This document shows positions 28,909 through 58,016 of a DNA stretch of 64,000 nt, piece by piece; the stretch's first letter is position 1; each line of letters begins with the position of its first letter. This DNA comes from Sedimentisphaerales bacterium (GTDB taxonomy: Bacteria; Planctomycetota; Phycisphaerae; Sedimentisphaerales; SM23-30). Below the pieces are notes generated by a model that was given only the letters and a program-made list of their open reading frames with translations, was not told the origin of the DNA and searched no databases. The DNA lies in the NCBI GenBank assembly GCA_963666285.1, contig OY762711.1; one strand, given 5' to 3'. Both the position numbers and the translations under genes were made by a program.

Positions 28909-28990
28909 AATATGTCACTTAGCAAAATTTTGTGTATTTTCAAATATACTTATGATATGAAGCAATTGCCTTTGCTTCATATCATATTTC

Positions 28991-30604: not shown

Positions 30605-33560
30605 ATAACTCACCAATTAGTGGTATTAATAGGTCCTTGCCCTTTAGCCCATATAGTTTTTTTAGGAGGTTACACATTGCATTCTTTTGTAATTCAAAAG
30701 TTTTTTGCAATGGTTCCTGCTTCCTCTTGTTGCCATCATTTTGACCAATCGAGTGGTAGATTTCAATTAATTGTTTTTGAACACGTGATATTTCATCATG
30801 GACTGAAACGTCATTTTTGTCTTTAAAATTAATAGCTCGTATAGGGAGACGCTTAAGCACTTTAGTACCACGAGCAATGTAACCGCCGCGAAATACTTCA
30901 CCATATAAAGCAGAAAACCACTCGACGTATTTTGAGTTAAGTAATGCTTGGATGTAGTAAATAGAGTATTGACAGTCATCGGGCAATGTGATCATACAAT
31001 AACCTGCAGTGCCTCCAGAGGATATAAGAGTGCCGTAATAATCAATGGCATACTTGTCACCTTGGGATAAAACTCCAACAATAATTTTGGCGGGAACATC
31101 ACATTTATCTAAACACTGATGCCTACCATATCGGTACCATTCATTTTCAGCTGTAGGTGGTGGACTAATATTCCGTTCAGTAAGTTTATCCTTATATGCT
31201 CTCAAGTATTCAAATGCCTTGGGATATTGCTTTCTCAACACATCCAGCTTAACAAAATCAATACTATCGTTCTGTTTTATATAAGGGTAGATGACAAATG
31301 AATTTGGGGAAAAGGGGCGATACGTATTTAGATTGTCAGCCCCACTTGATGTTTGGAAGTAAGGTCGTGTTAGTTCTTTCTCTATCGCCCATACTTTCCC
31401 ATCTTTACGAAAGTAGTAATACTTAGAATCGTCACTAATAGGAATATGGACGTAAATACTATTGGCACTGGTTTGTATACCATTGTAAATATTGCTAGGC
31501 CCAAGCAAGTCACCAAGTTCTACGCTCTGATTGCCAATGGCATCGTAAATTGGTTTTAGATCACTTGACACAAGCACCCAGCCGTTATTGTCTAGGTCGT
31601 CATAATTTACATTCTCATAAGCCTTGGTGGTTTTACGAGTCATCCAACTATCAAGGTCATTGTACTCTGCATATTGCAAAAAATCTTGAGTTTGCTTTTG
31701 AGCGATTAGTAAGCATGTATATGTCGTCTTATCCTGAAAAACTTGATTAGCACCAAATGAAAGTATTCGGCTTATATAGTCATTGTCTTTTAAGTATTTT
31801 CGAAGTTCCTTTCCTGCTCCGACTTTTGTAAACTTGCTCGGGACTATATACCCCAAGTGTCCGCCATCCTTTAACAAAGAGCAAGCACGTTCTATAAATA
31901 GAAAGTATTTATCGAACTGCTTATGTGATGTTTGATAATACTGTTTATATAAACCAAACTCTTTTGGGGTTAGGTTTTTCATGTTTTCTGTCGAAAGGTA
32001 AGGTGGGTTGCCAATTATTATGTCATATTTATCTTCGCCAAAATCATGCGGATTGATTTCTTCTCTATTAGAATCTTGGACATGCGTACTATCAAGCAAG
32101 CTGTTTCCGAAATGAATATTTGAAGACAAGTCAGGAAGTACAGGGGTCGGCACGCTTGAATCAGTTTCATCTTCGATTAACTTGAGAAGCAAACCAAATT
32201 TACATGCCTCTACTGCATTAAAATCTTTATCAACTCCAAAAATGCAGCTTTCGATTAACTTTCTTTTAATTTTATATTGAAGCTTATATGTTGATGTGCT
32301 TTTCTGAATCAATTTCCTAGGAGATTCTCTGATATAATAGTCAATCAATATGTCGTTTAATAATTGATATGTCTCTAACAGAAATGCGCCGGAGCCACAT
32401 GCTATATCAGAAAAACGGTAACTTAATATTTCCTCGTCTGTCTTTCCTTCACAGTACTCTTGGACTGTTTGCCGCAATATATCCTTGATTATGAAAGTTG
32501 GGGTTGTTATGACATCTCTGTCAACATGTTCTGGTTTGTTTTCTAGAACAATTACATTGTCTTTAATTACAAGATGCTGCCCAATAAAAATTTCATAAAT
32601 ATTTCCTAATATATCAGAAGCAAATACTGCGAAAGAATAAGTGCTTGCAGGAAAATATAATTGCTCAATAATTGACCAAAACGCAGACTGGTTATTTTCT
32701 AAAACAGCATCTGAATACTTATGATCAAATAGGCCAGAATTGTATTTCTTGTCAGCCTCCTTGAACTTTTTAATTAGGGATTCAAAATCCTTTTCTTTAG
32801 CACATTGCAGTAAAAATTCATACTCTTCAAGATTCCTGTCTTCGCAAACACGAAGAAAAATAATACTATTAAGGTAGCGATGAACGATATCGTTCAGCTC
32901 TATCTCGTCTATATCAGGTCTATGTGAAAATATCTCTTCGCCTAAAATAACACGCCATTGATTAATCTGGTCTAGGAATATCTTGTCAATGCTAAAAAGT
33001 TTCAATTGTTCTTCAATGTCTTTCCAAATTTCATCAAATTGACCACTATAAACACTTTTCTGGCTTAACTGCTTTTTAATCTCATCATATTTTTCAATAT
33101 ATTCAGTGTAGTGGTATAAATTAATACGAGAATGAGAAGCTATGTCGTCAGCACCAACTTGTTTTGAACAGTCATAAATAGCTAGGTGTTCAAAGTTAGA
33201 TAGGACACTAATCTTTAATTTTGCAGTAAACCCATATGCTCGTGTTTGCCTTGCTGGCTCTGGATTTTCATGGATTTTAACATTTGGCTTTTTAGCCTCA
33301 ACAAAAAACTTTCTGGTGTCGAATAACCTAAAAGTATAGTCAGGTTTTTTGGTATTTGACGAAACATTTTCCTTTAAAGGCTCTTCAACCAAAACCTCTC
33401 TTTCATTTGTTATTTTCCCAGATGCATTCTTTATATCCCATCCCAGTAATTCAAAAAAGGGTTCTAAAAAATCAGTTCTAAGCTGAGATTCGTTGTATTT
33501 GCTTGATAGATAATGAGTCCTATTATTTTCGTATTTCTCAATAAGTTTATTTATGCTCAT
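30591..33560 (-). CDS. Type IIG restriction-modification enzyme (Eco57I-like)
   Basis: N-terminal KPDY...VEAKK nuclease, DIACGSGAF, GNPPY, C-terminal TRD; a ~990 aa plus ~540 aa pair as in Eco57I. Confidence 0.88.
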   Translation of the reverse strand: MSINKLIEKYENNRTHYLSSKYNESQLRTDFLEPFFELLGWDIKNASGKITNEREVLVEEPLKENVSSNTKKPDYTFRLFDTRKFFVEAKKPNVKIHENPEPARQTRAYGFTAKLKISVLSNFEHLAIYDCSKQVGADDIASHSRINLYHYTEYIEKYDEIKKQLSQKSVYSGQFDEIWKDIEEQLKLFSIDKIFLDQINQWRVILGEEIFSHRPDIDEIELNDIVHRYLNSIIFLRVCEDRNLEEYEFLLQCAKEKDFESLIKKFKEADKKYNSGLFDHKYSDAVLENNQSAFWSIIEQLYFPASTYSFAVFASDILGNIYEIFIGQHLVIKDNVIVLENKPEHVDRDVITTPTFIIKDILRQTVQEYCEGKTDEEILSYRFSDIACGSGAFLLETYQLLNDILIDYYIRESPRKLIQKSTSTYKLQYKIKRKLIESCIFGVDKDFNAVEACKFGLLLKLIEDETDSSVPTPVLPDLSSNIHFGNSLLDSTHVQDSNREEINPHDFGEDKYDIIIGNPPYLSTENMKNLTPKEFGLYKQYYQTSHKQFDKYFLFIERACSLLKDGGHLGYIVPSKFTKVGAGKELRKYLKDNDYISRILSFGANQVFQDKTTYTCLLIAQKQTQDFLQYAEYNDLDSWMTRKTTKAYENVNYDDLDNNGWVLVSSDLKPIYDAIGNQSVELGDLLGPSNIYNGIQTSANSIYVHIPISDDSKYYYFRKDGKVWAIEKELTRPYFQTSSGADNLNTYRPFSPNSFVIYPYIKQNDSIDFVKLDVLRKQYPKAFEYLRAYKDKLTERNISPPPTAENEWYRYGRHQCLDKCDVPAKIIVGVLSQGDKYAIDYYGTLISSGGTAGYCMITLPDDCQYSIYYIQALLNSKYVEWFSALYGEVFRGGYIARGTKVLKRLPIRAINFKDKNDVSVHDEISRVQKQLIEIYHSIGQNDGNKRKQEPLQKTFELQKNAMCNLLKKLYGLKGKDLLIPLIGELYETD

Positions 33561-33755: not shown

Positions 33756-33971
33756 TTAAATCTTTTCGTCAGGAAGCTTTCCTTTTTCGCTCAGCCACCG
33801 ATCAATGGTTTCCTTGTGAAACCGCCAATGCCGCCCAACTTTCTGACCTGGTAATTTGTCTTCCTGAGCCAGTTTATAGAGTGTAGACTTAGCGACCTTC
33901 AAGTAAGTTGAAAGTTCGTCAATTGTCATTACACTTGTATTCTCTTCAAACATATTATTCGCCTTGTGCAT
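33756..33971 (-). CDS. Excisionase-like HTH_17 DNA-binding protein
   Basis: MTIDELSTYLKV.KSTLYKLAQ..KLPGQKVGRHWRF. Confidence 0.9.
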   Translation of the reverse strand: MHKANNMFEENTSVMTIDELSTYLKVAKSTLYKLAQEDKLPGQKVGRHWRFHKETIDRWLSEKGKLPDEKI

Positions 33972-34409
33972 AAATTGGCTATTTTAGAGGATAGTACAGC
34001 TTCTAAAGCCTCGGAATGCCATATATTTAACAGTTATTAATGCTTGCTGTCAATTACTAATTACCAGATGTCCGATTTAGAGTACATAAACTTGATTTTT
34101 TAAGCTTAATTTGTTAAAATTTTATTAAAAGGTTCAGAAAAGACGTGAATTCTGAACCTTTTTTCACGTCGATTTTGCAATTTTTTCTAAGAAATCCATA
34201 TTTTCAGCCCCTTATGAGGCCATTTTCCACTTTTTGCCCGTGTCATCCAGAGCAAGAATACATTTACACTGCCTATATCTGGCAAGCCTATTATGCACAT
34301 AAATGCTTATTAGTAAAGCATATAAGTGCAAATCAATCTCCATCAAAGGTTCATATAACACGTCTTAGATGAACTCAAGTGACAGGAGAAGTATTTTGAT
34401 TAAAAAAGC

Positions 34410-35039
34410 ATGATAACCGGCAATTGGATTCTGGAGCCAAGCAAGTTTCTAAACAGGAGTCAGGCTGGCGATTTACTTGGTACCGCCAAAGAGCAAGCTG
34501 AGATTTCACAGGCCAGAAGCGAAAAAGTCGCTGTTCGGGACTACTTTGTAGTCCATTTTAATATTGGAACTGGCCTGAGAGTTGCGGAACTGGCAGATTT
34601 GAACTGCGGCGATCTGTTTATCAATGGCAAATCGAGTTCTGTATTGGTCAGGAATGGCAAAGGCAGCAAGAAGCGATTGGTCTTTATTAGTGAGTTATTG
34701 GCAAGCCACTGTAAGGAGTATCTTCGGTGGAAAAAGCAGATCGGGGAATCGGTCGAAGATGATTCGCCATTATTTCTGTCAAGCAATACCGGCAGGCACA
34801 TGACTTCCAGAGCTTTGCAGAAAGCTTTTAAGCGATGTGCCAAGAGAGCGAATTTGGACTCAAATTATTCGATTCACTGCCTTAGGCACACATACGCCTG
34901 TTTTTTGCTGAAAGCCAGCGACTGGAATCTCAGGCTTGTTCAGAAGCAGCTTGGCCATGCCCGGATATCCACAACACAAGTATATGCTGACGTAATGATG
35001 CCTGACATCGAAAAGGCACTTAACAAACTGCACTTATAA
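34410..35039 (+). CDS. Tyrosine recombinase, catalytic domain only
   Basis: GLRVAE, GKGSK.R, HCLRH, LGH, TQVY; only 209 aa. Confidence 0.9.
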   Translation: MITGNWILEPSKFLNRSQAGDLLGTAKEQAEISQARSEKVAVRDYFVVHFNIGTGLRVAELADLNCGDLFINGKSSSVLVRNGKGSKKRLVFISELLASHCKEYLRWKKQIGESVEDDSPLFLSSNTGRHMTSRALQKAFKRCAKRANLDSNYSIHCLRHTYACFLLKASDWNLRLVQKQLGHARISTTQVYADVMMPDIEKALNKLHL

Positions 35040-35122
35040 AAGATTATTCACCGTACGGTGGTAACAAGGATAAAATTTATAAGGACAATCGTTTTCCAAT
35101 AATAATAAGAGAGGATATTAAA

Positions 35123-35800
35123 ATGAAACTTCCAGATTTTATTAAAAAGCCATTAACTGGGCTTGCTTTACTAGCTGCGGCAACATCCGCAAATGCTGGG
35201 GTGACTACTGATCTACAAGTAGGAAATTATAACAATCTTGACAATGGTTTTAATTACACCTTAGCAATCACCAATACATATCCTGATATTACATTCGATT
35301 CTGGATTAGTTAAAAGTGATTTTATCAATGGTTTAGCTGATAGTATCGCAAACTACAATCCTAACGTAGATAAGCAGAGTGTTGTTGATGAATTGAATTC
35401 TACTATCGGCTTTTTTCCAACTAGTGACTACAACGGAAGTACCGGCTGGTTCAACTCTATTACTCCAGCGGGAGACATTGAGTTGACTAATAATGGAATA
35501 ATTCCAGGAGTTACTTACAATGAATGGAATCAGGACGGCACCGCTGTTCTTCATGGATTCGTGAATGCAGACCTGCTTGATGTTGATGGTGTTACTGGGT
35601 ACAATCCTGTTACTGATCTGGGCTTAAGAATTGATTCACTAAATCCGTACATCAATGGAGTTATTGGAACAAGTACTAACAACCTACGGTACGGTGGGGA
35701 TTTAGATCGACTTGAAGCTACCCCTGTCCCAGAGCCTTCATCGTTAGCACTTGTTGGAATGGGAGCATTAGCATTATCAGGTTACAGAAAAAGAAAATAA
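35123..35800 (+). CDS. PEP-CTERM sorting-signal protein
   Basis: Signal peptide; C-terminal VPEPSSLALVGMGALAL..RKRK. Confidence 0.9.
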   Translation: MKLPDFIKKPLTGLALLAAATSANAGVTTDLQVGNYNNLDNGFNYTLAITNTYPDITFDSGLVKSDFINGLADSIANYNPNVDKQSVVDELNSTIGFFPTSDYNGSTGWFNSITPAGDIELTNNGIIPGVTYNEWNQDGTAVLHGFVNADLLDVDGVTGYNPVTDLGLRIDSLNPYINGVIGTSTNNLRYGGDLDRLEATPVPEPSSLALVGMGALALSGYRKRK

Positions 35801-35821
35801 TATTAATTTTGGAAAGTTTCA

Positions 35822-35854
35822 TAATGAAGATTGGTGTCTTGCCGGTCTTCATTA
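35822..35854. terminator. Hairpin between convergent genes
   Basis: taatgaagattggt-gtctt-gccggtcttcatta. Confidence 0.65.
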
Positions 35855-38800
35855 TTAGTTCAAAACATGAGTTTTTGAAATATTGTTTAGAAAGTCACCC
35901 TCATAGTAAAACAAGTCTCCGTAATCAAATAAACCGCTTTTACTGTCATCATAAATTTTAACTATACCGCCTCTTCCTGATATATTTGCGTAAGATCCAA
36001 AAGAGTTTTGAGAAAATATTTTGTATTGAATCTCATCCATACTATCACTCACCGTAAATCTTCCAAGCACACAGCCGCTATCATCACAGCCGTCCTGCAC
36101 AAAAGAATATTTTCCCATATAATAAGAAGTATTCATAACTACTCCATCAAAACTATTGTCAACATCTACTAACCACCAACTATCGCCATAACTGGCATTA
36201 TAATCATTAGTCAGGTCAGTAGTGAATGAGTAACTGAAATTATTGGCGACAGAATTATTAAACCAGTATTGGTTATATCCATCTTTGCCAACAGAAACTA
36301 AATTGCTTAAATCTACATCTGACAGATTAATTGGTTCATTAAAAGTCAGATTCAACTCGAAGGTACTCAACTCGAAGGGACTATTGACTAAGGAGACTTT
36401 CAGATTACTCACGGTGTCAATGTCATGAAGCAAAGTATAATTTCTGAAATCGGTCATATGACTATTGTTTTTTGAATAGTCCCATTCAGGAATATGGGTT
36501 TCAATAAATGTTATATTTTCAACCGCCGAATCAATACTCATCAACACTGTTTCATTAAAATATTCAAAATCAGTATCAAAGCTGAAATTTAATACAACAG
36601 AAGTGCCATCCCACGTCATAAACCAACCCGAGACATTCTTGCTAAGATCAATATTGCTGCTGCCTAATGAATCTGAATAGCTTCCTGATAATTGGATCGG
36701 ATTTCCAGTGGAATTCAAAAATGAGATCGTTGAATAATTATAAACATACCTGTTTGCGAAATCAATTGCTTTGGTATTCGACCCATAGTCATATATAGTT
36801 CCATCAAAAGAATTGACCGTCATTCCTGACAGATTGCAGCCTTCTAACTTCACTTCTGACTCGCTGCTTCCCGTGAAGACAACACCGTTAATAAAACTTA
36901 CATTTTCAAATCGTAATACCCCTAAATCAGTTCCGGATATATTAATGCTGCTTCCATTAAAAATCGAATTTGAGACAGTACCGTTTGACTCACTAAAATT
37001 AACAGATGCATTGAACACAACCTGATTTATATTGACTCGGACATTATCAAATTCAACATTAGCAACAAAATCTTTTCTAACAGATCCTGAATAATCACAT
37101 CCGCTCGCAATAATAGCGATTCCAAGACTGAACGGCAGATCGTAATCTGCACATCTGGTTTCATCGGTTATTGTGTCAGCCAAAATCATAGAATATTGAT
37201 TCGGTGCAAAATCTATAGCAAAAGAATCGTCTGAATTCTGGTTAAAAGTATAGAGGTTAGATTTATCAACCAGATAGTATTTCAGATTCTGAGACGAATC
37301 ATAATAATCATTTCGATAAGTTCGCCCGACCATATTCACCTTAAAGAAGTAATCGTTATAGTTCCATCCATTGACAGTGTTAATGTCTGAAAATGTGAAA
37401 TTAACTATCGGAGAAGTTTTATTGACATTAATTTTTGCCGTATATTCTGTGCTCAGGTTCCTGAAATCTGAAATATTATTGTCTGCAATTTTCAACAACC
37501 GATTGCCGCTGATATAGGAGTAGATTATTTCCGAGTCAGAATCATTATCGAAATCATAGTTTGCTGAAACGTATGCGGGCGACCAATCAAATGTTTTAGT
37601 TGTCAATGAATTTACAAGGTAGATTCCTAATACCCCCGAACCCTTAAAAGCATGGTATATGAGATCATAATTAGCATCTCCCATAACGTCTAATAATTGT
37701 GTTTCGTAAAGAAAGTTTAGGCCAAAATCAAATGATTCTTCCAACTCCAATCCGCTTCCGCTGTAATTATACCAGTAGACTCCATAATCGGTGCTATCCA
37801 CACCGATTTCAATATGTCCATCCGAATCATAATCTCCTGCGAATATTGATTTGACATCAAACCCGTTTGCATTAATATAATAATAGTCCCATTCAGAAAT
37901 GTTCATGGACAAGTTGTTTCGATGAAATAATTTGATTTGATTCGGAGCTGAAACATCATAATAGCATATTACATCTTGTATCGTATCTTTGTCAATGTCG
38001 ATAATCTTCATATCTGTGCATTTATAGTTTCCTCCAGAGACAATCTTAGTATTAACAGGGACAAATGCGTCTCCATCTAAACTATAATAATTATATTGCC
38101 ATTGCCCTCCGTCTGCACTGGTTGCATTCAAAACCAATACATCCTTGTAAAAATCCCCATCAATATCGAACGCGCTAAACGACAAAATATGATCCATGCC
38201 GTCAACTACCTGAGCACCATAATTAAACCTAAAACCATCACCATCAATCGCCCCAAGTAATAAATGGATATCACTCTTGTTGCCAATCAGAATGTCACCG
38301 ATTCCATCCCAATTGAAATCAGTGATGAAAAACTCTGCGTCATTATTCATAACAACACCTGTAGCTGGAAGTGTAACTGAATTCAAAATCTCTCCGGCAC
38401 CTGAGTAATTCGCCCGAACATTAACTCCATCAAAGACAAGAAGGCCATCATCTTCAAGCACAATTAAATCGTCAATACCATCCAAATCTATATCGTAATT
38501 GCCAAGCTTAAATCCATTAGCAGATGAAATCCCAGAAAATGGGTTAGAGTTTGAAACCGAAAACTGCGGTTCATAAGGCTCAACTGAAACATAACCACTG
38601 CCATTGTACCAGCCGCCAGAATATGAGCAGTTGTAGACAAGGTTTATATTGTCCGAATTACTATATGTATGCGTGTAGCTCTGCACATCCGAATAATCAT
38701 TACTGTCAATTGAAATGTCACAGGAATCAAAATCAATTGTGCTTCTATCAGATTCAACATACCATGAAACAATTTCGTATTCATTTTCGATATATTGCAT

Positions 38801-39178
38801 TGGAGAATAATCAAAGTCTAAGTAAAACTTTCCCTGCTGGTTATAAGGCACAGTCCAGTTTAAGAAGTAGTCAGTGCCGTTTGAACAATTGAAATACAAA
38901 TAAGTACCATTTATGAAAGATATGGTAAAATTGTACAAATTGCCCGAACTTCCATTTGCTTGATAAAAAGTTGCATTGTCGTAACTGAACGAACAGTTAT
39001 TCGAATTTTGCAGAATGTTAGAAGAGTAGAGACCGACTGTTAAATTGACATTGTCATTTTTGTACAAGTCCATCCAAAATGGATTTTCAATATTTGTTAC
39101 ATTGCCTTGAATTGTATTTGCAAAACATAAGCTAGAAATAATTACTGCAAATACCAAGCAAAACGTTATGCCCCTCAT
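35855..39178 (-). CDS. Large secreted FG-GAP/VCBS-repeat surface protein, Asn-rich, archaeal-like
   Basis: Signal peptide; repeated DxDxDGxxD motifs; very dense N-x-S/T sequons. Confidence 0.75.
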   Translation of the reverse strand: MRGITFCLVFAVIISSLCFANTIQGNVTNIENPFWMDLYKNDNVNLTVGLYSSNILQNSNNCSFSYDNATFYQANGSSGNLYNFTISFINGTYLYFNCSNGTDYFLNWTVPYNQQGKFYLDFDYSPMQYIENEYEIVSWYVESDRSTIDFDSCDISIDSNDYSDVQSYTHTYSNSDNINLVYNCSYSGGWYNGSGYVSVEPYEPQFSVSNSNPFSGISSANGFKLGNYDIDLDGIDDLIVLEDDGLLVFDGVNVRANYSGAGEILNSVTLPATGVVMNNDAEFFITDFNWDGIGDILIGNKSDIHLLLGAIDGDGFRFNYGAQVVDGMDHILSFSAFDIDGDFYKDVLVLNATSADGGQWQYNYYSLDGDAFVPVNTKIVSGGNYKCTDMKIIDIDKDTIQDVICYYDVSAPNQIKLFHRNNLSMNISEWDYYYINANGFDVKSIFAGDYDSDGHIEIGVDSTDYGVYWYNYSGSGLELEESFDFGLNFLYETQLLDVMGDANYDLIYHAFKGSGVLGIYLVNSLTTKTFDWSPAYVSANYDFDNDSDSEIIYSYISGNRLLKIADNNISDFRNLSTEYTAKINVNKTSPIVNFTFSDINTVNGWNYNDYFFKVNMVGRTYRNDYYDSSQNLKYYLVDKSNLYTFNQNSDDSFAIDFAPNQYSMILADTITDETRCADYDLPFSLGIAIIASGCDYSGSVRKDFVANVEFDNVRVNINQVVFNASVNFSESNGTVSNSIFNGSSINISGTDLGVLRFENVSFINGVVFTGSSESEVKLEGCNLSGMTVNSFDGTIYDYGSNTKAIDFANRYVYNYSTISFLNSTGNPIQLSGSYSDSLGSSNIDLSKNVSGWFMTWDGTSVVLNFSFDTDFEYFNETVLMSIDSAVENITFIETHIPEWDYSKNNSHMTDFRNYTLLHDIDTVSNLKVSLVNSPFELSTFELNLTFNEPINLSDVDLSNLVSVGKDGYNQYWFNNSVANNFSYSFTTDLTNDYNASYGDSWWLVDVDNSFDGVVMNTSYYMGKYSFVQDGCDDSGCVLGRFTVSDSMDEIQYKIFSQNSFGSYANISGRGGIVKIYDDSKSGLFDYGDLFYYEGDFLNNISKTHVLN

Positions 39179-39200
39179 ATTGTGACTATCTGGTTAAGCT

Positions 39201-39215
39201 TATATAAAGATTTTG
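39201..39215 (-). promoter_or_regulatory. Archaeal-type BRE/TATA promoter
   Basis: caaaatc-TTTATATA ending 23 nt before ATG 39178; no SD. Confidence 0.55.
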
Positions 39216-39386
39216 TTTGAGTATTGGTCTACGTTATTATCGGTATAGCAAAAACTTAATAAAGCAGTTAATTGTTCCAAAAATTGGTTAAAGTCGTCAT
39301 TAAGCTTCCTTTCGGGGAAACTTAATGGCATTTTCTTTCTGGTGAATAGCCCCAGTTAACTGCGACAAGCCTCCATAAATATCAGA

Positions 39387-39599
39387 TTATTCATCTATGA
39401 CTACCATTGAGCCATCATTAAATAAATCACCCTGATAAGCAATTTCCATACCAGGAATTGCTTTGGGAGATTTGCTGATAAGGGTATCGTTATCGACTGA
39501 GTAAGCAGTTTCATTTATCGCTATTTCAGAATCATCATTTGCCATGATGGTGCATCCTGAAAGAAGTAATAGTATTGTCAATACAAATATTAATTTCAT
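39387..39599 (-). CDS. Small lipoprotein-like protein
   Basis: MKLIFVLTILLLLSGC; TTTTAAAT box 22 nt upstream. Confidence 0.55.
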   Translation of the reverse strand: MKLIFVLTILLLLSGCTIMANDDSEIAINETAYSVDNDTLISKSPKAIPGMEIAYQGDLFNDGSMVVIDE

Positions 39600-39639
39600 G
39601 TCAATAACCAAAGTCGCCATATTTAAAAGCATTTTGTTC

Positions 39640-39792
39640 TTAATTTTTCTGTTGGTTATTATTTGTCGGCAAACCGTAAGTGAATACATCTAAACATGCT
39701 TGAATCCTTTCCATTCCTTCTTTTTCTGATATTTCTTTTCTATCGTAAGCATCAAGAATCCGTCTTATCTTTTTGATCATTTTAGTGTCCAT
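39640..39792 (-). CDS. Small hypothetical protein (50 aa, below the ORF-track cutoff)
   Basis: MDTKMIKKIRRILDAYDRKEISEKEGMERIQACLD...; AAGGAG upstream; divergent from the wHTH gene. Confidence 0.5.
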   Translation of the reverse strand: MDTKMIKKIRRILDAYDRKEISEKEGMERIQACLDVFTYGLPTNNNQQKN

Positions 39793-39872
39793 TTACACAT
39801 TTTCTCCTTTTTGGCAATCTATTTAGGTATTAAGCTAGCTTATAAAGATGAAGTGTCATTTATTCACGACCT

Positions 39873-39923
39873 CTGCATAATTATGCAGTGATAGTATAAA
39901 AAGGTATCTGTTTAATTATGCAG
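39873..39923. promoter_or_regulatory. Two operator-like palindromes flanking a TATA-like box
   Basis: Perfect CTGCATAATTATGCAG (39873-39888) and variant CTGTTTAATTATGCAG (39908-39923) around TATAAAAA (39895-39902). Confidence 0.7.
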
Positions 39924-39925
39924 AT

Positions 39926-40141
39926 ATGCCAAGGAAAACTTTATCTCAGATATCAGCATCGATTCAGTCATTATTGCAAAGCGAAGGCGAATTATCCGTC
40001 AGGCAGATAGCCCGGCTTACACATACACAGTGGCGAACAGCTGATAAAGCACTGGAACTTTTAAAGTCACTTGGCCTTATTGAGGAACGAAGATCAGATA
40101 ATAACAAAAGAAATGAACGCCTGTTCCGCTTGATTAAATAA
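39926..40141 (+). CDS. Small winged-HTH DNA-binding protein
   Basis: GELSVRQIA......WRTA.KALELLKSLGLIEE...RLFRL. Confidence 0.8.
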   Translation: MPRKTLSQISASIQSLLQSEGELSVRQIARLTHTQWRTADKALELLKSLGLIEERRSDNNKRNERLFRLIK

Positions 40142-40167
40142 AATCAACATATCATGCTTAATCAGCA

Positions 40168-40518
40168 TTAAACCCGATATAGCTGATCATAGAGGCGAAC
40201 AGGCAGATAATCCCTAACTGCAGTATCAAGGCCTTCAACCATATGCAAAGCCTGGGGTAGCTGCCCCTGAACAAGAGCATCATAAACATCCTCCAAGTCC
40301 GCAACATCACTAAATGTCGTGCCTGCGATGTCATATTGCTTACGTTTGATATATCCTTTACCATCATCGATCAGTCCGTCGATCTGTGTATGAAGCGATG
40401 CGACATCTTCAATATACTGACCAAGCAAATATCCCTGCGGCAGTCTTGATTGCAAGATTGACTGTTGTTTTTCAGTTAGCTCTTCAAGTGAAAGACATTT
40501 ATTACGCTTACTGGCCAC
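40168..40518 (-). CDS. Hypothetical protein, homologous to the C-terminal half of 47382..47882
   Basis: Shared DV..L.DV..A...G....A....EGL.....D..P.RL pattern. Confidence 0.65.
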   Translation of the reverse strand: MASKRNKCLSLEELTEKQQSILQSRLPQGYLLGQYIEDVASLHTQIDGLIDDGKGYIKRKQYDIAGTTFSDVADLEDVYDALVQGQLPQALHMVEGLDTAVRDYLPVRLYDQLYRV

Positions 40519-40939
40519 TGTCTACACCTCGAAAATAATTACCTGCAAGCTGCTCAATTGGCCGCATATACATATCAATACCCGCTGCGTCGGGCCTGTA
40601 ACCTTCCAGTTGATGATATATATCCGCAGCAGCAATCAATTGCTCAACGTAATTATTCGCAGGAACTGCACTTTGAACCTCAACTTCCGGTGTTAAAAGC
40701 TGGATGTCTATAAATTCAGATCGCATTCTCCTGCTGAAAATAGCGTAATAGCCATCTCTCCCCTCTATATCAATCTGCGTATATCTTGGGTGCTGCAATG
40801 TCCCGCGATCCCGCCCAGCCATATATGAAGCAACCACTATATCATTCACCAAATCATTTTTATCATCACCGGCATTGAACCTGTTATGGTATTGTCGAAC
40901 AATCCCTTCGATAGTTTCCCGTTGTATTGGATCAGTCAT
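40508..40939 (-). CDS. Hypothetical protein
   Basis: ORF overlapping the downstream gene; GAGGTG SD for the next gene lies inside it. Confidence 0.6.
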   Translation of the reverse strand: MTDPIQRETIEGIVRQYHNRFNAGDDKNDLVNDIVVASYMAGRDRGTLQHPRYTQIDIEGRDGYYAIFSRRMRSEFIDIQLLTPEVEVQSAVPANNYVEQLIAAADIYHQLEGYRPDAAGIDMYMRPIEQLAGNYFRGVDSGQ

Positions 40940-40970
40940 CGTATATCATAAAGCAAACCCAATAATTCAT

Positions 40971-42104
40971 TTAATAATGTTCAACCGATTTGGACTGCAT
41001 GTTCATCGCCTGCATCTGAAACAACTGTTGCTGGAGCAAGAGCATTTGCTGCTGAATAGCTTCTATTGATGAAATATTACCATTATTGTTTACCTGTATA
41101 TTGGTGACATTTTGTGTAGTTTGAACATCGGTTGGTTGCGCCATTGTCTGCTGTTGAAGATTATTTTTTGAATACACATTTTCAACTAAAGCTTTTTTCA
41201 AATCATTGTTATCCAGATGAACATATACATTTTGATGTTTACTTCCTGGGGCATGGCCTGCAAACTTATTATGTTCAATGCCCTTAACTCCAAGTTTGTA
41301 TAATTCTGTTAGCCGACTGTGCCTGAGTAGATAGGTATTGACTTTTCTTTTTATCCCAACTCTTACAGCCAACCTCTGGATTATTCTATTGATATATGCT
41401 GTTGAAATCGGTTTTTTCCGTGGCTGGTTTGCTCGTGCCATTGCCGGAAATATATAGTCATCATATTGAGGGTCAGGATAAGCCCATTGCTCATGCCACA
41501 TTTTTAAATATTTTATAGAATTATATATCGGCAGATCACGATCATGCGTTGTCTTGGTTGAGTAGAGGTGGACTTCTTTGTCATCCCAATTGATGTCACC
41601 CCAACACAAATCTCTGATTTCTTGTGGCCTAGCTGCAGTTTCAGCAAGAATCGCAAATAATGCCTTATCTCGCAGACGTTCGGCCAGGTGAAGCATTTGT
41701 TTTGCTTCTTGTGGCTTAAACAATACTGATTTGTTTATCTTTGTAGGATTCACCAGAGGACCGATAGGGTTTTTCAAGCATTCTATCATATCCAGGTTTC
41801 TGTAAAACCACTTTAAGAAACGCTTAATGGTTCTGCGTATCATTATTTTCGTAGCGTTTTCATGTTGAGAATAATTTACTAACCCCCAAAAGTCGATAGC
41901 ATCGTCTCGAGTTATCTGATCAAGAGGTTTTTCCATTACATCAATGAACTGCAGCATATATCGGCGATAATCTCTTACCTTTGTTGGGCCAGCGGTAGTA
42001 GCACAGAATCTCAGATAATCGTTAAGTATTTTCTTGTCACTGTCAGACAGGTTTTGAGCCAAAGGTTCAGAGTCTCTTCCGTACATTCGGTATTCACTTT
42101 TCAT
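40971..42104 (-). CDS. Tyrosine recombinase/integrase, archaeal-style, with Gln-rich tail
   Basis: ETAARPQE, STKT, YLLRHS, AGH, VYVH; SD GAGGTG. Confidence 0.85.
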   Translation of the reverse strand: MKSEYRMYGRDSEPLAQNLSDSDKKILNDYLRFCATTAGPTKVRDYRRYMLQFIDVMEKPLDQITRDDAIDFWGLVNYSQHENATKIMIRRTIKRFLKWFYRNLDMIECLKNPIGPLVNPTKINKSVLFKPQEAKQMLHLAERLRDKALFAILAETAARPQEIRDLCWGDINWDDKEVHLYSTKTTHDRDLPIYNSIKYLKMWHEQWAYPDPQYDDYIFPAMARANQPRKKPISTAYINRIIQRLAVRVGIKRKVNTYLLRHSRLTELYKLGVKGIEHNKFAGHAPGSKHQNVYVHLDNNDLKKALVENVYSKNNLQQQTMAQPTDVQTTQNVTNIQVNNNGNISSIEAIQQQMLLLQQQLFQMQAMNMQSKSVEHY

Positions 42105-42322
42105 AGTGCCACCTCTGGACAGTAGTGTTTTTGTGGTTTGTCTCGATTAGGACGGTTTAGAATGCCGTAAATGAGTGTTTCAGAAAAAAGGGGCTGGGGA
42201 GACAAAATGTAAATGCCCAGGCCGGGCTGACTCAATTTGACTCCACAGCCACTTTTACGGTGCAAATGGATTGTTTTTATCATGCTTTTTCTTAACAATT
42301 ACCCATATATAAATTATTCGTT

Positions 42323-42499
42323 TCATTCTACAAATCTGTTATAATACTCTTTTAAATAATACATCAAACATTGTTTACTACAAAACAATGTCTCATCATC
42401 TAATTTCAGGAATCCTCTTGGTCCGATTACTCCTACTTCTAAATTAATCGCATTTTCTCCCAATCTTAAAGATTGTTTGCATTTTTGGCATTGCTTCAT
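42323..42499 (-). CDS. Small zinc-finger protein (58 aa), paralog of 43055..43234
   Basis: MKQCQKCKQSLRLGENAINLEVGVIGPRGFL..FCSKQC. Confidence 0.65.
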   Translation of the reverse strand: MKQCQKCKQSLRLGENAINLEVGVIGPRGFLKLDDETLFCSKQCLMYYLKEYYNRFVE

Positions 42500-42576
42500 T
42501 TTTGCATCAATGCTCGAGAGTAATAGATTTTTTATAAATGATCTATCGATTTTGGCGGTAAGATTTCAATGGGCAT

Positions 42577-43077
42577 TTATTTACGATGCCCAAATATACT
42601 TTTATACGTTGGCAAACAGAAGTGTTCTGCTGCTCTTAATCCGTGCAGGTCACGAATCAGTAGATCAAATTCAGAGATTTCTTTAGGAACGTGAAAAGAT
42701 AAAATCAACATTTCTGAACCAAGAAATTTGATAATTGTCTCTGGATTACCTTTTTCTTTTGGGAAGCTGCAATAATGTCCATCTTTACTTTGAAGCACAA
42801 TGTAATCCATGCTTAACTTATAGCCATCAGTAAAGCCATTGTTAACTATACGTAATTTCATAGTCAAACATTTCATCTTACTCATCATATTTTTTATACT
42901 GAAAGGATGACTAAGGCTTACAAGCTTTACTGCCAGATGGTTATCTATTGAAAGTTTATTATTGGCAGGTACTGTTTCATTCTTCTGTATGGTTGTAAGC
43001 ATATTCTGGATAACATGCATCTCAGCGGATACAGTATCTATCCGTCTGGATATTTCATTGACTATTTGGTAATTCAT
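42577..43077 (-). CDS. Hypothetical protein
   Basis: Start MNYQIV overlaps the upstream Zn-finger gene; coiled N-terminus, beta-rich C-terminus. Confidence 0.5.
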   Translation of the reverse strand: MNYQIVNEISRRIDTVSAEMHVIQNMLTTIQKNETVPANNKLSIDNHLAVKLVSLSHPFSIKNMMSKMKCLTMKLRIVNNGFTDGYKLSMDYIVLQSKDGHYCSFPKEKGNPETIIKFLGSEMLILSFHVPKEISEFDLLIRDLHGLRAAEHFCLPTYKSIFGHRK

Positions 43078-43234
43078 TTTGCACTCGTAAAAATGACCAG
43101 AAACATTGTTTGCTGCAAAATAGCATTTCATCGCCCAGGTTCAGAAAACCATGAGAGCCTATTACTCCGATTTCAAATTTAATGACATTCTGTCCTAATC
43201 GAAGGACACTTTCACATTTATGGCATTGCTTCAT
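43055..43234 (-). CDS. Small zinc-finger protein
   Basis: MKQCHKCESVLRLGQNVIKFEIGVIGSHGFL..FCSKQC. Confidence 0.65.
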   Translation of the reverse strand: MKQCHKCESVLRLGQNVIKFEIGVIGSHGFLNLGDEMLFCSKQCFWSFLRVQNELPNSQ

Positions 43235-43510
43235 AATCAATCATCACTGTAAGCCAAAGATTTGTTTATAAATAAACAACCGGTTTGGAGTGTTTTTGCA
43301 ATTGGGATAATTCTGTTTTAAAAAATGCCACAAAAGCTAAATAACGTCTATATAGCCAATTGAAGGTGTTTGGGAATGAGAAATTCTCACCGATATAGGA
43401 CAACTTCTGTTAGCGATTTTCAATATTTCGCTGGCAAAACTCATTTGTTTTTTTTATTTGCCCTCCAAAAAGGTTCAAAGTTGTTATTAAGTAGTGATAA
43501 CAACTTTGTT

Positions 43511-44086
43511 ATGAACTTTGACCGAACCGGCCACTGGCTTTTTAGGAGCAATAGACGACAAAAACTGCTTAGGCAATTATGTCAGCCTATGACAGCAAGT
43601 CAATTAAACACAAAAGTAAAATTGGCACGCAAAGATTGCAGTTTTGTAATTGCTGGCATGAATAGGCAGAACATTATTTATTGCCTGAACCCCGAAGCCA
43701 AGCGAAGCAGACTGTATGGTCTTACCGATTTGGGAAAATACTGGCGAAAACAGTTTTATCCTCAATTAGACGAATATAGTCAGCCTTCTGATATTGACTG
43801 GAATTTATACGGTTCTGTTTGTTTTAGCTATCGGAAGACTATCATTTTGGCATTAGATGAGCCGCGATACCCAGCTGACATCAAACGATACGCCAGATTC
43901 TATAATCCTGACATCAAGATGAGTTCTAATAATGTTCGTAATGTTATACCTGGACTTCTTGACAATGGAATAATTGTCAAAGTTGACACCAGAGGTGCAT
44001 ACCCTATGTATGACTTGACCGACACAGGCAGACAATTTCAAAATTTGCTGCGAAAAGCAGTGTCTAACCTTCAAAATGATAAATAA
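43511..44086 (+). CDS. Tandem winged-HTH protein
   Basis: Two repeats S..R..(L/I)L..L.(Q/E)P...Y.LTD.G; start moved to ATG 43511. Confidence 0.7.
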   Translation: MNFDRTGHWLFRSNRRQKLLRQLCQPMTASQLNTKVKLARKDCSFVIAGMNRQNIIYCLNPEAKRSRLYGLTDLGKYWRKQFYPQLDEYSQPSDIDWNLYGSVCFSYRKTIILALDEPRYPADIKRYARFYNPDIKMSSNNVRNVIPGLLDNGIIVKVDTRGAYPMYDLTDTGRQFQNLLRKAVSNLQNDK

Positions 44087-44819
44087 AATCCACCCTATCG
44101 ATGCCCTTGAAGGGCTTAAAAAGCTGAAAACCAATAGTGTTGACTTGATCATAACTGACCCGCCATATAATATTGCATCCGGCAATGCTCTGACAATCCA
44201 GCAAGGCAAACTTAAGAGTACCAAAGATGCCTGGGGGCAATGGGACATACACCATCCTTTCGATTATGATGTGTTCATGTGTCAGGTAATCATCGAATGC
44301 TACAGGGTTCTAAGGCCGGGCGGCTCTTTTTATATGTTCACTGCTCAGGAAGATAACGGTTATTTTATTCGTCAAGCCGTCAAAAAAGGATTCCAGCTTC
44401 GAAGAGTTATGGCGATGGTCAAAAAGAATCCACTGCCAAGTATGAGCAAAAGAAACTGGAGAAGCAGCTTTGAACTTTGCATGTATATGACCAAGCCATC
44501 GTCTGGTAAGAATGCAGGCTACAAGGACGTAACCTTCAATTTTCTTTCACAGCAAGACTGCATTAATGTATTTCAATATGCCAACGGCAGAAAGCACACA
44601 AAACATCCAACCGAAAAGCCTCAGGCGTTTATTGAATTGCTGGTAAACATCAGTTCTAATCCCGGCGATGTCGCACTTGATCCATTTATGGGTGGCGGAA
44701 CAACGGCAGCGGCAGCAAAAAAACTAGGGCGTAAATTCATTGGTTTCGAGTTGAACCCGGAATATATACAGATGGCTGAGAACCGTTTGGAACAGATTGA
44801 TTCGGGGGCGAAACAATGA
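44076..44819 (+). CDS. Orphan N4-C/N6-A DNA methyltransferase (beta class)
   Basis: ITDPPY, HPTEKP, LDPFMGGGT. Confidence 0.92.
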   Translation: MINKIHPIDALEGLKKLKTNSVDLIITDPPYNIASGNALTIQQGKLKSTKDAWGQWDIHHPFDYDVFMCQVIIECYRVLRPGGSFYMFTAQEDNGYFIRQAVKKGFQLRRVMAMVKKNPLPSMSKRNWRSSFELCMYMTKPSSGKNAGYKDVTFNFLSQQDCINVFQYANGRKHTKHPTEKPQAFIELLVNISSNPGDVALDPFMGGGTTAAAAKKLGRKFIGFELNPEYIQMAENRLEQIDSGAKQ

Positions 44820-45277
44820 ATACCTTGAAATATATTCGAGCTGAACCACAGTACAATGTAAATGAAAGTTCTGTCAGCAAGGCAGAAGAATTGCTAAGCA
44901 ATACGCTGGCAGAGTTTGGCACACCTAACCAAGATTACGAACCATCAGATAATATTGTAAGTGGAATCGAAAAGGCAACTGAACTTGTGCTTTGGCAATT
45001 GTCCAGGTTAAACAAAATGCATAAACAGACAATTGAAAGCATTCTTAAGGCAGAATGCAAGGCATCAACCGATCTTGAACGACTTCACCAGTTGGGATCA
45101 CGTTTCATCAATCCCACCGACACAAGAGCTGCACAGCTAAAGGATAGATTGGTTACTTTGGAAGAAAAAAGAAGACAGGCTGAGCTGGCATTCTTCGAAA
45201 GACAGTCAAAATGCCTTGAGAAACTGACAACACTGGTTGGCAGACACAAACTAATGACTCCGCCTCAGCACAGATGA
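44816..45277 (+). CDS. Coiled-coil hypothetical protein
   Basis: ATGA-coupled on both sides; heptad-rich. Confidence 0.65.
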   Translation: MNTLKYIRAEPQYNVNESSVSKAEELLSNTLAEFGTPNQDYEPSDNIVSGIEKATELVLWQLSRLNKMHKQTIESILKAECKASTDLERLHQLGSRFINPTDTRAAQLKDRLVTLEEKRRQAELAFFERQSKCLEKLTTLVGRHKLMTPPQHR

Positions 45278-47385
45278 ACATAGAAAAACTGGCCAAATGG
45301 CTGGAACCAATCATGCCTGACAAAATCAAGACATGGTTAAAAGTGCGAGACATGAGTGACCCAGCGACAAAACAGTTAATAGAAAAGCAGATCATATCCA
45401 CCGCATACAGTGTTTTTGGTGACCCCAGAAAAGCTATGCTACTTTCATTGCCGCCATCAAAGGTCACGGACAAGCCTTTGAAACTTGGTAGCGTGTATTA
45501 TGAACGCAGGCGAGGGGCATTCGGTCTCAATAATCAACAATTGCTGCAGCACACAGCTATTTTTGGTCGCTCGGGGGCAGGTAAGAGTAATGTTGTTATG
45601 AACCTGTTTAGGCAGTTGATTAACCGTAACGTGCCAGTATTGTTCCTTGACTGGAAACGCAATGGTCGTGAAATAATCCCTCACGTCACGCGAAAAGTAC
45701 AAGTCTATACCGCTGGTCGTTCGGTTAGACCTTTTCCTTTTAATCCTTTTATCCCACCGCCTGGCATTGAGCTTAACGTCTATACTCAACATGTTGTCGA
45801 TGTTTTAGCTGATGCATACACGCTTGGTGATGGTGCAAGAAGTCTGATGCAAAAAGCCATCATCTCTGCAAGTAATAAATATGACAATGCCCCGAATGTG
45901 ATCCAAATAATTCACGAATTGGAACAGGTAAACGAATCAGAAAAGCTAGACCGCAGTCGAAGTCGAGGCTGGAAAACAACCGCAATGCGAGCGTTAGAAG
46001 AACTAAAGTTGGCCCAGCTGACAGGCGGTAATGCTCAATCGCAGCATAAGTTTGCTCGAAATCTTGCTGCCGGAATCAATGTCGTTGAGCTTGACAGCTT
46101 ATCCCAATCAACGCGTAAATTCATTATCCCATTACTATTTTCATGGGTATATCAGGTTAAGCTAGCCGATTCAAAACGTGAGAAATTATCACTTGTATTA
46201 ATCCTTGAAGAGGCTCACAATGTTCTTTATCGTGGTCAAGGTTCTAATGAGACACTGACCGAACAATTACTTCGTCAGTGTCGTGAAATTGGCATTGGCG
46301 TTATACTTGTAGATCAGCAACCCGGTCAATTATCTTCATCGGCTTTGGGAAATGTCCACAGCAGCATTTGCCTTAATTTAAAAGATCCCGCTGATATCAC
46401 AAAAGCAGCAGGCTTGTCTTTGCTCGATGAAACTGAAAAGAACTATTTAAATCAACTTGAGGTCGGCACTGGTATCGTGAAACTGCAGACACTGTGGCAA
46501 CGGCCCTTTATGGTGCGGTTTGACCATCTGGAACTTGCCAAGGGTAAGGTCACAGACGATGTATTGATTCGCCTGATGCGGGGCAATCTGCCGCAGTCTA
46601 CCCTGAGTCAGCGGGTTTGCCCCAATACCCCACGCAGTTCGCGCCGTCGCCTGCTTGATAGCGGCTTTAATGGGGACCAAGACCATGTCATTGGTCTTAT
46701 ACATGACATCTTACACCATCCATACGATGGTGTAAGAGTCCGCTATGAACGCATAGGGCTAAGCGTAGGTAAAGCCAATAAGCTCAAACAGGAATTACTG
46801 ACTTTAGGGTGGCTATCTCAAAAAATGGTTTCTCAGGGTAATACTCGGAGAGTTGTCCTTGAAATAACTGATGCAGGTCGCAGAGTATTTGATTTGCCAA
46901 TCACCCAGAAAAAGCCCGATCCGATCCTTTCTGTAAAGAAAACCACCACTCCAAAACCTGCCAGAAAAGGCTGGATCGATGTAGGCCTGATAATTGACTA
47001 TATCTCTAATGACAAGTCAGCTTCGCATATTCGCCGTGAATCTTTGGAACACTCCTACTGGAAAAATCGCTACGCTCGCCGCTTAATAGAGCTTGGCTAT
47101 GATGTTGAAATGGAAGCAGCAGTTGAAGGTGGTTTTGCCGATGTCGTTGCACACAAGGCCGGACAAACGCTGATTTGTGAGATCGAGACTGGACGCTCGG
47201 ACTTTATCAAAAACCTGCGACATGGCCTTCAATCGACTGACCTTGTTATCATCGTAGCAACCTGCGAAAAAGCCATGCAAAAAATCGAACGCACGTTAGC
47301 TGAAAAAGAATTACTGATACCCAGCAGGGTTGAAATTGTCCTCAAAGATCATTCCCGATTTTTTGGGGGGAGAAAAATAAGATGA
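45274..47385 (+). CDS. HerA/VirB4-like (DUF87) ATPase fused to wHTH and PD-(D/E)XK-like domain
   Basis: GRSGAGKS, LILEEAH, RQCREIGIG..LVDQ; C-terminal ESLEH...ADVVA...CEIETG. Confidence 0.82.
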   Translation: MNIEKLAKWLEPIMPDKIKTWLKVRDMSDPATKQLIEKQIISTAYSVFGDPRKAMLLSLPPSKVTDKPLKLGSVYYERRRGAFGLNNQQLLQHTAIFGRSGAGKSNVVMNLFRQLINRNVPVLFLDWKRNGREIIPHVTRKVQVYTAGRSVRPFPFNPFIPPPGIELNVYTQHVVDVLADAYTLGDGARSLMQKAIISASNKYDNAPNVIQIIHELEQVNESEKLDRSRSRGWKTTAMRALEELKLAQLTGGNAQSQHKFARNLAAGINVVELDSLSQSTRKFIIPLLFSWVYQVKLADSKREKLSLVLILEEAHNVLYRGQGSNETLTEQLLRQCREIGIGVILVDQQPGQLSSSALGNVHSSICLNLKDPADITKAAGLSLLDETEKNYLNQLEVGTGIVKLQTLWQRPFMVRFDHLELAKGKVTDDVLIRLMRGNLPQSTLSQRVCPNTPRSSRRRLLDSGFNGDQDHVIGLIHDILHHPYDGVRVRYERIGLSVGKANKLKQELLTLGWLSQKMVSQGNTRRVVLEITDAGRRVFDLPITQKKPDPILSVKKTTTPKPARKGWIDVGLIIDYISNDKSASHIRRESLEHSYWKNRYARRLIELGYDVEMEAAVEGGFADVVAHKAGQTLICEIETGRSDFIKNLRHGLQSTDLVIIVATCEKAMQKIERTLAEKELLIPSRVEIVLKDHSRFFGGRKIR

Positions 47386-52091: not shown

Positions 52092-52274
52092 CAGGTAGTG
52101 GGAAATTTGAGTCTTTATAAAAATTGTGTTTGAGGTGATTTTGTAATCATGCTTTCAGGGTGAAAAAACAGTTTTCACCTTCCATAATTACCTCATGAAA
52201 TCACCTTTTTACTCCTTTAAATTGAGATCTGAGCATTAGATTAGTCAATTAACCCAATTTTAAAGGAACGTAAA

Positions 52275-53339: not shown

Positions 53340-53341
53340 TC

Positions 53342-55002: not shown

Positions 55003-55003
55003 C

Positions 55004-55658: not shown

Positions 55659-55684
55659 CCATCATATTAAAAGGACATTTAACA

Positions 55685-57994: not shown

Positions 57995-58016
57995 CTATTT
58001 TTACAGGAGATTTATC

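Follow-up and report, generated by a model that had tools for sequence, protein, structure and literature searches.

An integrative element family of planctomycetes with recurrent Nanobdellota-type cargo and a second, archaeal-type integrase

ICETh1 of Thermus thermophilus, an element integrated at a tRNA gene, combines an ATPase of the HerA family with a type IIG restriction enzyme and a methylase of N4/N6 type (PF01555); it transfers DNA in a contact-dependent manner without a classical type IV secretion system (T4SS) and is reported to capture DNA of the partner (PMC5365140, PMC7767461). Here, we describe an island with the same set of components in a 64-kb stretch of DNA (the window, to which all positions refer unless prefixed by a contig or locus code) from the 6.15-Mb, 41%-GC chromosome (C1) of a Sedimentisphaerales bacterium (genome G000; assembly GCA_963666285.1, contig OY762711.1). 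An earlier inspection of the letters only (the sequence-only reading) had proposed that 35041-43300 was archaeal DNA captured by a planctomycete integrative element. The likeness to ICETh1 is one of description, and going by the available text on ICETh1 there are differences as well: the elements described here form a family of 40-66 kb versus 15 kb, the window island encodes two DUF87 ATPases and a second, archaeal-type integrase, and the exchange runs across domains and not between strains. NurA, which precedes the ATPase in ICETh1 according to the same text, had no match for any scanned window open reading frame (ORF).

Archaeal tRNA-targeting elements similarly place a tyrosine integrase at a tRNA 3' end, directly behind the restored tRNA (PMC8371274, a review of archaeal integrases whose available text does not mention DPANN archaea); here, by contrast, members of one such integrase family are also found within bacterial elements, where they go unused. 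Integrons have been described as cross-domain platforms through which bacteria acquire archaeal genes, and the cases given include Nanoarchaeota and Planctomycetota (PMC9668308, available part), whereas the multi-gene blocks described below keep their own archaeal promoters. The window contains no recognisable integron integrase IntI (TIGR02249, 27 bits versus a cut-off of 265) and no evident cassette array, attC sites not having been searched. As for the Ced system of Sulfolobales, CedD and CedB were the best NCBIfam matches of the 703-aa ATPase, but at 83 and 47 bits versus cut-offs of 600 and 700, and CedA membrane proteins were not detected among the families scanned. Recurrent flow from Nanobdellota into bacteria has been described for RuBisCO in Patescibacteria (10.64898/2026.05.13.725050); unlike the present case, it concerns a single gene and recipients from the candidate phyla radiation, with no vehicle, and the accessible text mentions neither planctomycetes nor integrases. 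Bacterial genes and a correlation with bacterial communities have been reported for Woesearchaeota, with planctomycetes unmentioned in the part of the paper available (PMC8421398). In the literature searched, whose coverage left out supplements and most subscription papers, we found no report of this element family, nor of planctomycete islands that contain DPANN DNA, although the islands may be mentioned where the carrier genomes were published.

The island measures 39.8 kb (23962-63790), and 18 bp from the 3' end of tRNA-Asn are repeated at its two borders. Its attachment-site (att) direct repeats at a tRNA gene, together with serine and tyrosine recombinases, identify it as an integrative element or genomic island. 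It belongs to a family of tRNA-integrating elements which share a core of double winged helix-turn-helix (wHTH) protein, methylase, HerA/DUF87 ATPase and CxxC proteins. The core ATPase was present in 27 of 401 genomes of the class, and its three organism-named relatives were Limihaloglobus sulfuriphilus, a Planctomycetes bacterium and a Phycisphaerae bacterium. This family has exchanged DNA with DPANN archaea repeatedly, which is the larger point and had escaped the sequence-only reading. Recurrent transfer from Nanobdellota to planctomycetes within the family is well supported and, in our judgement, highly probable.

A second island of the same chromosome (island 2, C1:3372194-3438096, loci L001-L004; 66 kb, tRNA-Lys, 29-bp att) has most backbone genes in common with the window island, at 35-79% identity, and different cargo. 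Another segment, of 29 kb, has its end at a second copy of the att (C1:3343464). The cargo of island 2, about 19 kb of 28-33% GC between a small wHTH gene and a PEP-CTERM gene, is larger and compositionally fresher than that of the window, with DPANN-like codon use lying mostly at the 97th-99.8th host percentile. It encodes a 2759-aa surface protein, PEP-utilising enzymes, HAD, NUDIX and radical SAM proteins, and a second glycyl-tRNA synthetase (GlyRS) which is 31% identical to the host's own. Of 119 GlyRS relatives listed (best about 63%), 19 were organism-named, namely 17 DPANN, one archaeon and one Bacteroidota. Comparable islands were found in further genomes. In G044 (single contig), gene order is as in the window and a 1160-aa surface protein follows TTTATATA at 22 nt. 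The island of G145 (single contig) encodes an ATPase of greater divergence and contains several ORFs with a TATA box at 22/23 nt, an ORF resembling one from an archaeal-type contig of low GC, and a pilin-like ORF without a family in Pfam or NCBIfam, whose class-III signal motif is presumably of DPANN type. In G116 (56% GC), a wHTH protein 45% identical to one on an archaeal contig is preceded by TTTATAAA at 23 nt.

We considered whether DPANN contigs could have been joined or binned into a planctomycete genome by error. The source appears to be a mixed sample, and several sister loci lie in fragmented genomes. However, a single 41.7-kb contig from a separate short-read assembly (two public runs, one sample) covers 33001-53000 with 0 differences and at the depth of other chromosome contigs, although it may derive from the source sample and thus perhaps from the same DNA; a further run, X3, yielded just short, uneven pieces. 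Short-read contigs thereby run across both junctions, near 35040 and 43300, that the sequence-only reading had wished to see checked. The islands are moreover att-bounded, and syntenic, diverged elements occur in two further single-contig genomes. The chance of a chimera is therefore practically negligible, and the earlier claim of real integration in a planctomycete tRNA island is supported. The argument offered for it, homologs at 47382 and 62397, stands only in so far as homologs exist. Neither concerns an archaeal gene: the ORF at 62397 is related to the PEP-CTERM gene at 35123, and 47382 has no tblastn match elsewhere in the genome and matches backbone genes of other elements. GC content was tried as a marker of the block and rejected (35.6-38.3% versus 37.2% in the defence part). 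A sigma factor of the window passes a Rhodopirellula/Verrucomicrobium model, which, with the named relatives of the core ATPase, agrees with a planctomycete host, probably of the Phycisphaerae.

As for promoters, TATA-like octamers had been noted ahead of five ORFs without a Shine-Dalgarno (SD) word. The boxes are where they were reported and an SD-like word is absent ahead of all five ORFs, while the spacing to the ATG is 21-23 nt and not 22-24 nt (Table 1). A strict box, [CT]TTAWAWA, was set beforehand; it is satisfied by three of the five (ATG 39178, 42283 and 52091), the remaining two, TTTTAAAT and TATAAAAA, being looser. Strict boxes were counted at 21-23 nt, with other offsets as composition control; the counts are approximate, because ORFs were called by a simple first-ATG rule. 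The window island had 3 among 49 ORFs (expected 0.28, Poisson p 0.003) and the paralogous island 7 among 64 (expected 0.35, p 9e-8). The rest of the chromosome showed no excess (15/4417, expected 12.4, p 0.27), so that, as the sequence-only reading had required, the layout is not equally common before host genes. As a positive control, five contigs with archaeal marker genes gave 13/86 (expected 1.19) with a peak at the same offset, which bears out the archaeal promoter layout, i.e. leaderless, with a TATA box 21-23 nt before ATG and no SD. In 28 loci of other carriers the strict box preceded 10 of 587 ORFs (expected 0.91), and in carrier loci of at least 55% GC (elements of 55-62% GC) 4 of 198 (expected 0.07). 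In orthologs of the CxxC genes, some 22 nt separate a TATA-like box from the ATG (30-31 nt in the window).

The box might instead be a bacterial promoter element of the family, a -10-like hexamer, with the archaeal labels due to mis-binning or distant similarity. TATAAA resembles the sigma-70 -10 box, a conserved upstream word (often CRGTTSAA) stands before the box in several bacterial-context copies, and no TATA-binding protein (TBP) was found in G000, nor any above cut-off in five other carriers, which leaves the idea of a TBP encoded by element or host without support. Nevertheless, the same spacing is seen on contigs with archaeal ribosomal and transcription genes, and the housekeeping GlyRS is nested among DPANN-named matches. 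We regard this explanation as very improbable; as to origin it is largely refuted, and it may still explain why boxes are retained in bacteria. In a host without TBP, no expression of the TATA genes is expected, except where the box also serves as a -10 element. A conserved AATCRGTTCAA-like word was also observed a few bases before the TATA-like box ahead of CxxC genes and several integrases (window, upstream of 42499, 43234 and 40939; L036, L040, L042, L047 and L005); an activator may bind there, or the word may reflect adaptation of the promoter to bacteria.

Gene content of the 35-43 kb block was then compared between the domains. Its 1107-aa protein carries 46 N-glycosylation sequons versus 20 expected and is the densest of the 1055 chromosome proteins of at least 500 aa, in line with the sequon-dense surface protein that had been predicted; the predicted short wHTH and the integrase with YLLRHS are both present too. 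A profile of the 1107-aa protein and its G044 homolog retrieved 16 relatives at E<=1e-30 among 1.8 billion sequences, and of 20 relatives looked up two were organism-named, a Nanobdellota archaeon and a Ca. Woesearchaeota archaeon. The window and G044 proteins are 27% identical, both have closer relatives elsewhere in the family, and their grouping as one clade was rejected (approximately unbiased test, p-AU 0.011; 13 rows, long branches). This suggests separate captures, although the majority of the other rows of the tree are without taxonomy. For the 71-aa wHTH protein, the top two Atlas clusters were 100% Archaea with Nanobdellota commonest, and an archaeal contig encodes a homolog of 32% identity; matches occurred in 4 of 401 class genomes, those of G000, G078 and G336 inside the HerA/DUF87 element family.

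Other genes of the block do not follow this pattern. Homologs of the PEP-CTERM gene at 35123 were found in 3 of 401 class genomes, G117 having three copies outside archaeal context, and an archaeal origin of this gene itself is not supported, since the family also occurs in non-archaeal planctomycete contexts. The three copies are tandem (L163:12642-15429) and lie between two insertion sequence copies in a prophage-like remnant. A PEP-CTERM gene borders archaeal cargo in four elements (window, 35123-35800; island 2, L003:7048-7896; and those of G044 and G145, L058:6258-6953 and L059:2852-3982), and that of island 2 shares the codon usage of the cargo, a hint that such genes may be present in DPANN donors. 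The window integrase has archaeal XerA-like models as its best matches, with NCBIfam XerA_Arch below cut-off, and matches two PDB chains which we take to be of archaeal source. It fell into generic Atlas clusters only, with no archaeal one; a plasmid search gave only 22-28% matches; name look-up of eight relatives returned no organism; and among its 46 relatives the two organism-named ones are planctomycetes and none is named archaeal, which speaks against a single archaeal block. The region 39640-43234 is a conserved backbone common to the second island and other genomes. Finally, the large genes of the block have synonymous codon use at the 56th-96th host percentile, so the profile check asked for earlier places the block mostly within the host range. 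The block is thus a mosaic and not a single captured archaeal fragment, as had been supposed. The suggested Nanobdellota (Woesearchaeota/Pacearchaeota) origin holds for the surface protein and the wHTH gene, and finds no support for the PEP-CTERM gene and for the integrase with its planctomycete-named relatives.

The internal integrase provides a further link to archaea. In the family, its backbone slot is occupied by one of at least three integrase subfamilies. The island-2 subfamily was found in only 3 of 401 genomes of the phylum at E<=1e-40; the metagenome loci considered are the best 80 of 113. Several of these, relatives of 42-58% identity, lie in archaeal chromosomes as judged by marker genes on the contigs (uS12, uS7, TFS, MAP II, CDC48 and Kae1 above cut-off, uS15 and aIF2-alpha below it), and there a purine-rich run and a TATA box stand 21 nt before the integrase ATG. 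Bacterial-context copies as one clade were rejected (p-AU 0.032; quick trees of 29 of 81 rows, near-copies and unclear-host loci excluded), with the reservation that the groups were named after the first tree had been seen, that for most of the archaeal rows the label came from gene content and a low GC, and that the loci are non-independent.

In archaeal chromosomes, this integrase family sits directly behind tRNA genes. Among 61 loci with enough upstream DNA (near-copies included), an intact tRNA T-arm was present within 200 nt upstream of the integrase in 16 of 38 loci without the backbone and in none of 23 with it; none of 12 planctomycete-genome loci had one. In bacterial context, a degenerate T-loop and a core of 12-14 nt that resembles a tRNA 3' end lie instead between two inverted arms. 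L118 and L137 integrated behind a tRNA-Asp, and 14 nt of its end are identical to the core of G354, which has a single occurrence in that genome and is not the end of any tRNA in 181 class genomes. That of L101 equals 12 nt of the L078 tRNA-Glu. The window core (42214-42226) is unique in its genome, matches host tRNA-Leu at 11 of 13 positions and ends no tRNA in 201 class genomes. The internal att site is thus unused in bacteria. An archaeal target is evident for a few relatives only. That the window core itself was archaeal-specific was not borne out, because a phage contig has a tRNA end of bacterial type to which this core fits as well.

The reverse direction is touched by three contigs, L078, L118 and L137, in which 45-46%-GC integrases stand exactly behind archaeal-type tRNAs. 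Their closest genome-placed relatives are in planctomycete elements (58-61%; 58-60% for L078), with which they form a planctomycete-rich clade of SH support 100. In L078 (340-14456 covered, within a 122-kb contig), an archaeal GTPase (above cut-off), an intron-bearing tRNA, two ORFs of 32-34% GC, tRNA-Glu and a 45%-GC integrase are followed by about 10 kb near 50% GC with bacterial-type ISL3, LuxR, dockerin, ParB and kinase genes. Bacterial-type cargo behind an archaeal tRNA was found in this one contig only. L078 is either a bacterial-type element in an archaeal chromosome or a bacterial element with an archaeal chromosome end; either reading needs integration at an archaeal tRNA.

The elements are att-bounded islands with two kinds of recombinase, archaeal promoters and element-specific DPANN cargo, and the window island combines a recombinase beside a bacterial tRNA with a second integrase behind an archaeal TATA promoter and an unrecombined attP-like site. 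As the best single explanation we lean towards a two-domain shuttle, that is, a tRNA-integrating element family which circulates in planctomycetes and also passes through cells of Nanobdellota (Woesearchaeota/Pacearchaeota-type). In the bacterium, the element would integrate via its bacterial recombinase, and the TATA genes would be silent or weakly read for want of TBP. Transfer would proceed by cell contact, probably driven by the HerA-type ATPases by analogy with Thermus transjugation; Pfam (E<=0.01) recognised neither a relaxase nor a VirB family in the 47 ORFs of the window, so this route is inferred. In the archaeon, the element would integrate at an archaeal tRNA, imprecise excision may pick up chromosomal genes such as those for surface protein, GlyRS and pilin, and these would return to bacteria as cargo. 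Silent TATA genes would fit the decay of cargo, seen as an internal stop in the island-2 aldehyde dehydrogenase and a split integrase in G354.

Several observations weigh against such a passage. The lack of relaxase and VirB families is one. Thirty contigs, archaeal or of low GC, yielded neither a HerA ATPase nor a CxxC gene, and the core operon was not seen in the stretches of L078, L118 and L137 examined. The integrases at archaeal tRNAs belong to the island-2 family and not to that of the window, whose core, as said, also fits a bacterial-type tRNA end. The best inverted repeat outscored all 15 shuffles in only 17 of 28 loci, in some of which this repeat is a different one from the att site, and most relatives of the surface protein are without taxonomy. 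An excision joint was not seen in the contigs, which drop rare forms and covered 33001-53000 only. Finally, the host has ComEC, which permits simple DNA uptake.

Because of ComEC, one-way uptake stays the main rival, a possible account which we hold only tentatively. Here, small DPANN integrative elements and chromosomal DNA would enter planctomycetes repeatedly, by competence, vesicles or lysis of neighbours, and recombine into hot spots; a purely bacterial element would never live in an archaeon, and the archaeal integrase, promoter and attP would be passenger modules. Besides ComEC, the core ATPase with relatives named in planctomycetes only and none in the 30 archaeal or low-GC loci, the decay of cargo, the presence of at least three integrase subfamilies in one slot, and L078, if this contig is bacterial and its archaeal end was captured, all agree with it. 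It accounts less readily for the TATA box and intact integrase frames retained in genes of 55-60% GC, for TATA-like boxes ahead of the backbone CxxC genes, and for the three planctomycete-clade integrases exactly behind archaeal-type tRNAs.

Table 1. Coordinates of the features of the island in the window; the distance given for a box runs from its end to the ATG
Feature	Position	Strand	Basis
attR-like 18-bp direct repeat of tRNA-Asn 3' end; left island border	23962..23979	-	sole other copy of the 18-mer near the tRNA
Defence cargo: Gabija GajB/GajA, type II methylase, type IIG restriction-methylase; bacterial	25130..33560	-	PADLOC, Pfam
HTH_17 excisionase-like gene (-) and 209-aa tyrosine recombinase (+); backbone	33756..35039		Pfam; homologs 58-60% in island 2, G044
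PEP-CTERM secreted protein, edge of archaeal-type cargo	35123..35800	+	Pfam PF07589
1107-aa sequon-rich surface protein, FG-GAP repeats, Nanobdellota family; TATA box 39201-39208, 22 nt before ATG 39178	35855..39178	-	
70-aa lipoprotein-like ORF (TATA box 39621-39628, 21 nt before ATG 39599) and 50-aa ORF	39387..39792	-	homologs in G044 (28%), island 2 (52%)
71-aa winged-helix protein, Nanobdellota type; TATA box 39895-39902, 23 nt before ATG 39926	39926..40141	+	
Two small backbone ORFs, 116 and 143 aa, without family	40168..40939	-	homologs in island 2, G044, L005
Archaeal-like tyrosine integrase, in slot of DPANN-type integrases of sister elements	40971..42104	-	NCBIfam XerA_Arch below cut-off
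attP-like core, tRNA-3'-end shaped	42214..42226	-	arms conserved in G044, L005; core varies
TATA box 42306-42313 (22 nt before ATG 42283) and 60-codon ORF crossing attP-like site into integrase start	42101..42313	-	
Two CxxC/CxxxC small proteins and 166-184-aa ORF; backbone	42323..43234	-	alignment of 9 copies, 7 elements
Core operon: double winged-helix, N6/N4 methylase, 153-aa ORF, 703-aa HerA/DUF87 ATPase, 166-aa ORF	43376..47882	+	Pfam/NCBIfam
151-aa orphan, outside the block; TTTATAAA as TATA box 52114-52121, 22 nt before ATG 52091	51636..52121	-	box confirmed
Second DUF87 ATPase and PP2C-FHA, kinase-FHA, vWA module	52929..59336	+	Pfam; common to island 2, other elements
DUF2924, large serine recombinase, partner	59540..61981	+	Pfam, NCBIfam, PHROGs
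tRNA-Asn, attL core 63773-63790; right island border	63773..63847	-	

Among the smaller genes of Table 1, the 116- and 143-aa backbone ORFs had no match among the 30 archaeal or low-GC loci, and the 151-aa orphan had no family in Pfam, NCBIfam or PHROGs. The 60-codon ORF over the attP-like site keeps its layout in G044 and L005 with an unrelated translation, and is probably a leader, not a protein. A single-sequence fold of the double wHTH protein reached a predicted local distance difference test score (pLDDT) of 32 and was not used. The DUF2924/serine recombinase set is likely the bacterial-side integration module, judging from its position beside the tRNA. The ATPases gave only weak VirB4-like scores, short of the T4SS of a canonical integrative and conjugative element. 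No capsid or tail family, as in a prophage or archaeal provirus, was found for 20 ORFs compared with PHROGs, and five protein scans revealed no relative of the element proteins in viral contigs.

Several further features were observed. The PP2C-FHA/kinase-FHA/vWA module, a possible defence or signalling unit, recurs in several elements (window 55437-59336; C1:3432969-3436178; L050:15012-18576). A 1174-aa NTPase with HEAT repeats (47964-51488), with a 46% partial homolog in G044, is probably a defence protein. A Janus/Ocnus-family protein (Pfam; 61978-62385), unusual in a mobile element, has a homolog in island 2. In 23960-25060, a GIY-YIG gene adjoins the attR-like repeat and is accompanied by two imperfect repeats about 600 bp apart (24356/24978 and 24432/25028); the attR-like repeat could therefore also belong to a smaller unit. 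Outside the island, 21918-22279 harbours a repeat of about 325 bp with eight further chromosomal copies at 88-93% identity, and nine clustered tRNA genes (C1:5226832-5229866) possibly mark another mobile element. C2, C3 and C4 of G000 are related replicons of 65-66 kb, 76-82% alike in long blocks, without the TATA-at-22 signal.

DPANN-like genes in planctomycete genomes need not mean contamination. If only one-way capture took place, these would be islands with cross-domain cargo, which is still notable. If the elements do keep separate integration modules for bacterial and archaeal tRNAs, they would represent mobile DNA of a novel kind, which could perhaps be used as a tool in archaea not yet cultivated. 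To our knowledge, the hosts of Woesearchaeota and Pacearchaeota are not known. Cultivated DPANN archaea have all been described as ectosymbionts of archaeal hosts (10.1101/2023.02.24.529834, accessible part). That DPANN cargo of several genes recurs within a single bacterial class points to a candidate partner as well as to a vehicle. It would be a bold and, at present, rather unlikely proposal that the dual-integrase shuttle records a physical partnership, with Woesearchaeota/Pacearchaeota-type archaea attached to anaerobic planctomycetes. If true, planctomycetes would be the bacterial host for a DPANN lineage, and the cargo and att cores would point to the partners.

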